From a phage: a DNA stretch of 519 nucleotides. The translations under genes and the position numbers were made by a program. Numbering within the stretch: the stretch's first letter is position 1; each line of letters opens with the position of its first letter. Below the pieces are notes generated by a model. It was given only the letters and a program-made list of their open reading frames with translations. It was not told where the DNA came from and made no database searches. The DNA lies in sequence record L26366.1; one strand, written 5' to 3'. Positions 1 to 519 of this stretch are shown here, in pieces.

Positions 1-80
1 GACAGTGAGTCACCACACTGAAAGGTGATGCGGTCTAACGAAACCTGACCTAAGACGCTCTTTAACAATCTGGTAAATAG

Positions 81-114
81 TTCTTGAATGCATGACTAGC
101 GGATAATTCAAGGA
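81..114 (+). ncRNA. RNA stem-loop in the early-transcript leader, candidate upper stem of an R0.3-like RNase III processing site
   Basis: Seen in sequence: 81-89 (TTCTTGAAT) pairs with 106-114 (ATTCAAGGA), giving 9 contiguous pairs (89-106 U-A, 88-107 A-U, 87-108 A-U, 86-109 G-C, 85-110 U-A, 84-111 U-A, 83-112 C-G, 82-113 U-G wobble, 81-114 U-A) around a 16-nt loop (90-105). Established knowledge: T7 has an RNase III site (R0.3) about 35 nt upstream of the gene 0.3 start, which maps to roughly window 134 by recalled coordinates. I could not trace the lower stem or the exact cleavage position by eye. Confidence 0.5.
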
Positions 115-155
115 TATCGCAAGGTGCCCTTTATGATATTCACTAATAACTGCAC

Positions 156-160
156 GAGGT
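156..160 (+). promoter_or_regulatory. Shine-Dalgarno sequence (GAGGT) for ocr
   Basis: Seen in sequence: GAGGT at 156-160, 8 nt upstream of the ATG at 169, complementary to the 3' end of 16S rRNA. This matches the well-studied T7 gene 0.3 translation initiation region. Confidence 0.8.
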
Positions 161-168
161 AACACAAG

Positions 169-519
169 ATGGCTATGTCTAACATGACTTACAACAACGT
201 TTTCGATCACGCTTACGAAATGCTGAAAGAAAATATCCGTTATGATGACATCCGTGACACTGATGACCTGCACGATGCTATTCACATGACTGCCGATAAT
301 GCAGTTCCGCACTACTACGCTGACATCTTTAGCGTAATGGCAAGTGAGGGCATTGACCTTGAGTTCGAAGACTCTGGTCTGATGCCTAACACCAAGGACG
401 TAATCCGCATCCTGCAAGCGCGTATCTATGAGCAATTAACGATTGACCTCTGGGAAGACGCAGAAGACTTGCTCAATGAATACTTGGAGGAAGTCGAGGA
501 GTACGAGGAGGATGAAGAG
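169..519 (+). CDS. ocr: Ocr (gene 0.3 protein; overcome classical restriction), DNA-mimic inhibitor of type I restriction-modification and BREX; all 117 sense codons present, stop codon just beyond the window (3'-partial by the stop only)
   Basis: Seen in sequence: ATG at 169 with SD 8 nt upstream; frame open to the window end; translation [117 protein letters not shown]. It is very acidic (16 Asp + 17 Glu of 117, versus 6 Lys/Arg) with an acidic C-terminal tail. Established knowledge: this is near-identical to the T7 Ocr sequence as I recall it (117 aa, same N-terminus [10 protein letters not shown] and C-terminus EEYEEDEE). Confidence 0.95.

Follow-up and report, generated by a model that had tools for sequence, protein, structure and literature searches.

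The 519-nucleotide stretch of phage DNA analysed here (sequence record L26366.1, referred to at its full length as the window) is, with a probability of about 0.95, the early region at the left end of a genome of the bacteriophage T7 lineage, made up of the transcript leader and, after it, gene 0.3 (ocr). The gene product is T7-type Ocr, a known element, and its identification brings no new biology. The identity, the gene position and the sequence features of this ocr copy are demonstrated in the present analysis, while the copy itself is a previously unrecorded T7 variant, absent from all the collections searched. The features on which the argument is built are given below, with coordinates in the window, strand, description and, in brackets, the basis of each assignment.

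1..168, + strand: 5' leader of the early transcripts made by E. coli RNA polymerase in T7, collinear with T7 nt 757-924 (gap-free alignment)
9..29, + strand: conserved leader hairpin, stem 9-13 paired with 25-29 (RNAalifold consensus of 17 leaders)
57..68, + strand: rrn-type boxA GCTCTTTAACAA, a Nus-factor binding / antitermination motif (exact 12-mer match)
80..115, + strand: hypothetical alternative hairpin (stem 80-89/106-115) that cannot form together with R0.3 (subsequence folding)
97..145, + strand: hairpin of the RNase III processing site R0.3, with a lower stem, an internal loop and an upper stem 110-118/123-131 (homologous annotation, covariation)
156..160, + strand: Shine-Dalgarno sequence GAGGT, 8 nt before the ATG (read from the sequence; conserved in most aligned leaders)
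169..519, + strand: ocr (gene 0.3) coding sequence, 117 sense codons from the ATG (open frame; PDB, Pfam and PHROG matches)
10-435, - strand: antisense open reading frame of 141 aa with a TTG start (longest in the program-made ORF list)
81 C>T, 88 G>A, 107 C>T, 114 G>A, + strand: leader substitutions relative to T7 (alignment to T7)
207 C>T (D13), 234 C>T (N22), + strand: synonymous substitutions in the coding sequence relative to T7 (alignment to T7)
289 G>A (A41T), 388 G>A (D74N), + strand: amino-acid-changing substitutions relative to T7 (alignment to T7)

The ocr gene at the left end of a T7-lineage genome

When the whole window was compared by megablast with 50,697 phage records, it aligned without gaps to T7 nt 757-1275, all 519 of its 519 nucleotides being covered at 98.5% identity with 8 mismatches. 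In the T7 reference, gene 0.3 occupies 925-1278, carries the annotation 'inhibits EcoB and EcoK host restriction', and stands first among the coding sequences downstream of the early promoters A1, A2 and A3 (annotated at T7 498, 626 and 750, respectively). The window is collinear with this part of the genome and starts 7 nt past the A3 promoter start point (T7 750), the promoters A1-A3 themselves lying upstream of it. A consensus scan found neither a sigma-70-like promoter nor an intrinsic terminator in the window, the lack of a promoter being expected because A3 is located upstream. Moreover, an Rfam scan of the whole window at E values up to 1 returned no family, and no megablast match to the window was found among PLSDB plasmids and complete E. 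coli genomes. The closest natural relatives are at most 93.5% identical to the window region in DNA, so that the window has to be regarded as the T7 lineage itself plus changes.

As regards the coding sequence, the ATG at 169 is the earliest possible start, since an in-frame TAA is found ahead of it at 160-162. From there the frame runs to the final base of the window, which is the end of codon 117, and it was missing from the program-made ORF list because it runs off the window end without a stop. In T7, the TAA at nt 1276-1278 comes directly after codon 117 and overlaps the ATG of gene 0.4, whereas the window ends before the position of the stop. A preliminary description of this DNA had placed a highly acidic protein of 117 aa on the + strand at 169-519, and both coordinates and length were borne out, the translation containing 33 D/E and 6 K/R residues as compared with 34 and 6 in T7 Ocr, values which agree with the 34 acidic and 6 basic residues per monomer published for the T7 protein (PMC4872106). 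The same description had called the gene complete, a term valid for the coding part only, since the window includes every one of the 117 sense codons but not the stop codon.

The identity of the product was established at three levels. A phmmer search of all PDB chains gave 115 of 117 identical residues with 1S7Z chain A over residues 1-117 (E=6.9e-72), and nine other entries, 2Y7C included, were also matched. PF08684, 'DNA mimic ocr', was the sole Pfam family recovered, with 211.9 bits (curated cut-off, 25 bits), E=1.7e-63 and coverage of profile positions 1-101 of 101. Finally, PHROG 2568 (phrog_2568), 'ocr-like anti-restriction', was matched with E=1.6e-56. The preliminary description had named the protein as T7-type Ocr and had proposed comparing it with the T7 gene 0.3 protein, and the DNA with the T7 left end; the name agrees with all three matches, and the two comparisons gave the full-length protein identity of 115/117 and the gap-free alignment already mentioned. 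The assignment to T7 thus stands as far as lineage is concerned, but the sequence is that of a variant carrying A41T and D74N, and not that of reference T7.

In terms of organization, the window shares with T7 the 117 codons, the ribosome-binding site, the acidic C-terminal tail of Ocr and the position of gene 0.3 as first coding sequence after promoters A1-A3 and the RNase III site R0.3. It differs from T7 in A41T, D74N, two synonymous and four leader changes, the acidic count falling from 34 to 33. The Ocr homologues of other Teseptimavirus phages (N30, EG1, phiA1122 and SYGE1) belong to the same family and have the leader architecture of the window, but protein identity to them is only 84-95%, DNA identity does not exceed 93.5%, and their C-terminal tails vary, T7 being much closer.

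Eight transitions and the origin of the copy

All 8 mismatches to T7 are G:C>A:T transitions. Of the 1,275 differences that set T7 apart from its natural relatives in the same region, 31% belong to this class and, against that spectrum, the probability of finding eight out of eight is 0.31^8, or about 9e-5. Three of the substituted leader positions do not vary among 19 other leaders, which represent three genera. Furthermore, the exact protein was absent from a collection of 15 billion sequences, and the 21- to 43-mers bearing the variants were absent from IMG/VR, JGI metagenomes and GTDB genomes. The uniform direction of the changes reasonably suggests a chemically mutagenised or deaminated T7 stock. 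T7 populations mutagenised with MNNG are on record (Springman 2010, as cited in PMC8923235), and heat has been reported to raise G:C>A:T rates in T4.

These data open a serious alternative as to the state of the gene, according to which the copy is ocr by descent but comes from a T7 lineage mutagenised by chemicals or enzymes, or damaged in some other way, in which it is drifting, impaired or dispensable, its changes representing mutational load and not adaptation. The one-sided spectrum, the changes at otherwise invariant leader positions, the distance to every natural relative, which leaves T7 itself plus changes, the absence of the variant from every collection searched and the documented MNNG-treated populations all speak for it, as does the fact that gene 0.3 is non-essential and frequently deleted in laboratory lines. 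Nevertheless, the reading frame is intact and only two conservative substitutions are found in the protein, one of which occurs in nature. In addition, the four leader changes are pairwise compensatory in one helix, an arrangement that random load does not predict (1.4e-4), and a window of 519 nt is too short to reveal a genome-wide spectrum. On balance, mutational load in a damaged lineage is given slightly less than an even chance.

How far the two amino acid changes would affect the protein can be judged from published mutants. The Ocr literature numbers the mature protein without Met1 (PMC3439906), so that D74N corresponds to mature D73N and A41T to mature A40T. Within the segment 59-73, D73 is reported to be the only acidic residue near the EcoKI target-recognition domains (Roberts et al. 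2012, PMC3439906), and the addition of D73C to a five-site Ocr mutant abolished its residual inhibition of modification (PMC3439906). In the mutants published, however, the loss of Ocr activity required the removal of many acidic residues (PMC3439906). The comparison of homologues showed that N at position 74 is natural in phage SYGE1, while position 41 was A or V in the 24 homologues compared, with T only in the window. Since SYGE1 carries N74 and inactivation took many acidic removals, the window Ocr would be expected to have retained its activity in spite of A41T and D74N, possibly in a slightly weakened form, and the removal of a charge by D74N may entail some loss of potency.

Two further alternatives concern the identity of the gene and fare much worse than the reading of the changes as mutational load. 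The product might belong to the Ocr family without being T7 Ocr, and have other targets, like the more distant Ocr-like proteins of other Autographiviridae. Ocr homologues at 59-77% identity do occur in other phages, but identity to T7 reaches 98.3% for the window Ocr and 97.6% (164/168 nt) for the non-coding DNA beside its gene, and this near-identity of both protein and DNA to T7 effectively refutes such a reading, which is considered highly improbable. Even less credible, to the point of being negligible, is that the antisense ORF of 141 aa (10-435, - strand) represents a genuine gene that overlaps ocr: although it exceeds in length all other ORFs reported for the window, its frame is broken by stop codons in 7 of 19 relatives while the sense protein is conserved in all 19, no gene is annotated there in T7, and it is open by composition because the acidic sense codons are GAN-rich, so that it was rejected as a gene.

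RNA structures in the leader of gene 0.3

The 168 nt that precede ocr contain several conserved elements of the T7 early leader. The first is the hairpin at 9-29; for three of its five pairs, both bases differ among the leaders (UA to GC, AU to GC and CG to GC). These double changes separate a T7-like from a T3-like group, and the location of the hairpin, before boxA, resembles that of a boxB. The second is boxA itself, whose 12-mer GCTCTTTAACAA was matched in 0 of 200 shuffles and is invariant in the aligned leaders. In the transcribed strand, positions 57-67 of the window fit the boxA consensus GYTCTTTAANA (PMC5725501). Of the 47 related loci fetched (L001-L047), 43 have the same consensus ahead of gene 0.3 on the + strand, and the more distant Ocr-encoding phages among them (L026-L036) carry two to three copies. 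Some 30 nt separate the motif from the RNase III site downstream. The presence of boxA in the T7 leader has presumably been noted already in the T7 literature. The layout recalls that of the E. coli rrn operon leader (boxB-boxA, then an RNase III processing stem): in both, a hairpin comes before a boxA of the same sequence, and an RNase III site comes after it. The window, however, represents a phage mRNA leader. The likeness is one of motif and layout only, and Nus-factor binding is putative.

The third element is the R0.3 hairpin. A homologous stem-loop is annotated as R0.3 at the aligned position in T7M and phiYeO3-12, and in a set of 20 leaders from Teseptimavirus, Teetrevirus and Berlinvirus, 96.4% of the cells were paired and 5 pairs showed double changes, with 0 of 500 shuffles as extreme. 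In the window, G114A turns one pair of the upper stem into an A114.C127 mismatch, which breaks it, and C107T turns another pair of the hairpin into a U107.G135 wobble. It is because of this mismatch and this wobble that R0.3 is predicted to be weaker than in T7: the calculated stability of 93-148 passes from -18.0 kcal/mol in T7 to -10.8 kcal/mol in the window, i.e. about 7 kcal/mol weaker, and the predicted pairing probability of the upper stem from about 1.0 to about 0.4. If these folding predictions hold, the processing of the 0.3 mRNA and its expression might be changed.

The leader is not restricted to phages that encode Ocr. In T3-like phages and in phages of Klebsiella, Salmonella and Yersinia (L002, L003 and L038-L044; Teetrevirus and Berlinvirus), the same leader is followed by a SAM hydrolase gene. 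Such T3-type loci have, like the window, the boxA, the pair formed by CTCTTGAG and CTCAAGG, and the R0.3 hairpin in a homologous leader, and their gene 0.3 shares with ocr the first early position and the anti-restriction role. The coding sequence, by contrast, is unrelated, its product being a SAM hydrolase rather than a DNA mimic. The same leader thus stands before non-homologous first genes, and its conservation therefore does not depend on the anti-restriction gene that it precedes.

The four leader substitutions of the window fall in this conserved part in a particular arrangement. All of them are located inside 80-115, where they form two compensated pairs, 81/114 and 88/107, of a core helix 81-88/107-114 that can be extended to 80-89/106-115, and both of its G:C pairs become U:A or A:U. 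When choices of four leader G/C sites were enumerated, only 173 of 1,215,450 gave two nested G:C pairs in one contiguous helix, which corresponds to the value of 1.4e-4 set against random load above. The subsequence fold of this hypothetical hairpin reaches -13.3 kcal/mol in T7 and -9.1 kcal/mol in the window, and its helix overlaps R0.3 at 106-115. Across the 20 leaders, 93% of the cells of the helix were paired, but the double changes were solely the window's own. Its arms, CTCTTGAG and CTCAAGG in DNA, are invariant in the 19 other leaders, even though the adjacent upper stem of R0.3 exists in three covarying versions; as RNA, CUCUUGAG and CUCAAGG, they are thus invariant across three genera. 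Because the arms are invariant in those 19 leaders, the alternative helix has no independent support from covariation.

Two mutational routes to the same pattern were considered and discarded. Three of the four leader substitution sites lie in a GA[G] context, which makes a context-specific mutagen a partial rival. A purely context-driven mutagen, acting on GA[G]/GG[G] hot spots, would nevertheless produce the leader pattern with a chance of only about 0.025, and 0 of 12 GA[G] sites in the coding region are altered. A single template-switch event copying one helix arm onto the other is ruled out by the U82.G113 wobble (a T/G mismatch in DNA), which was left uncorrected. The reading which these observations invite is that the leader changes are truly compensatory, that the alternative helix (80-89/106-115), hitherto undescribed, competes with R0.3, and that the early leader of the T7 group acts as a conformational switch timing R0.3 processing and hence the expression of Ocr or of the SAMase; as a whole, this proposal is considered unlikely.

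Function of Ocr and meaning of the variant

The mechanism that would operate in this phage is drawn from published work on the T7 protein, which is 98% identical. The 117-aa product would adopt the known fold of the Ocr homodimer and imitate about 24 bp of bent B-DNA through its shape and the carboxylates on its surface, and unmodified phage DNA would in this way be shielded during its entry into the cell. As such a mimic, T7 Ocr blocks type I restriction-modification enzymes competitively (PMC2806950, PMC3439906, PMC4872106), and it inhibits BREX by binding BrxX/PglX (PMC7261183), a crystal structure of the PglX:Ocr complex being available (8Q56, PMC11341690). At this level of identity, with 2Y7C and 8Q56 as references, the window Ocr would likewise be expected to bind and inhibit, as a homodimer, type I restriction-modification enzymes and the PglX of BREX. 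Two further interactions would accompany this role. Ocr would also bind the host RNA polymerase, as the T7 protein does with the E. coli enzyme (PMC7064336, structures 6R9B/6R9G), and it would be sensed as a trigger by PARIS through AriA, a system in which Ocr releases AriB from AriA (PMC9122126, PMC11464382). The preliminary description had attributed to the protein all of these properties, namely the dimeric mimicry of bent B-DNA directed against type I enzymes, the inhibition of BREX, the binding of host RNA polymerase and the triggering of PARIS, and each is documented for T7 Ocr in the works cited. It had also regarded the gene as a known and not a novel anti-defence system, a view which is shared here, as the gene has already been thoroughly characterised.

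Ocr is a textbook DNA-mimic anti-defence protein, and in this respect the finding amounts to the correct annotation of a known gene. Two small points are of some value. The first is the variant itself, an unrecorded T7 sequence in which all the changes are G:C>A:T and one of them removes a charge at mature D73. The second is that the doubly compensated leader pairs hint at an alternative RNA fold overlapping R0.3 which, if real, would matter for the expression of the first anti-defence gene in T7-like phages.
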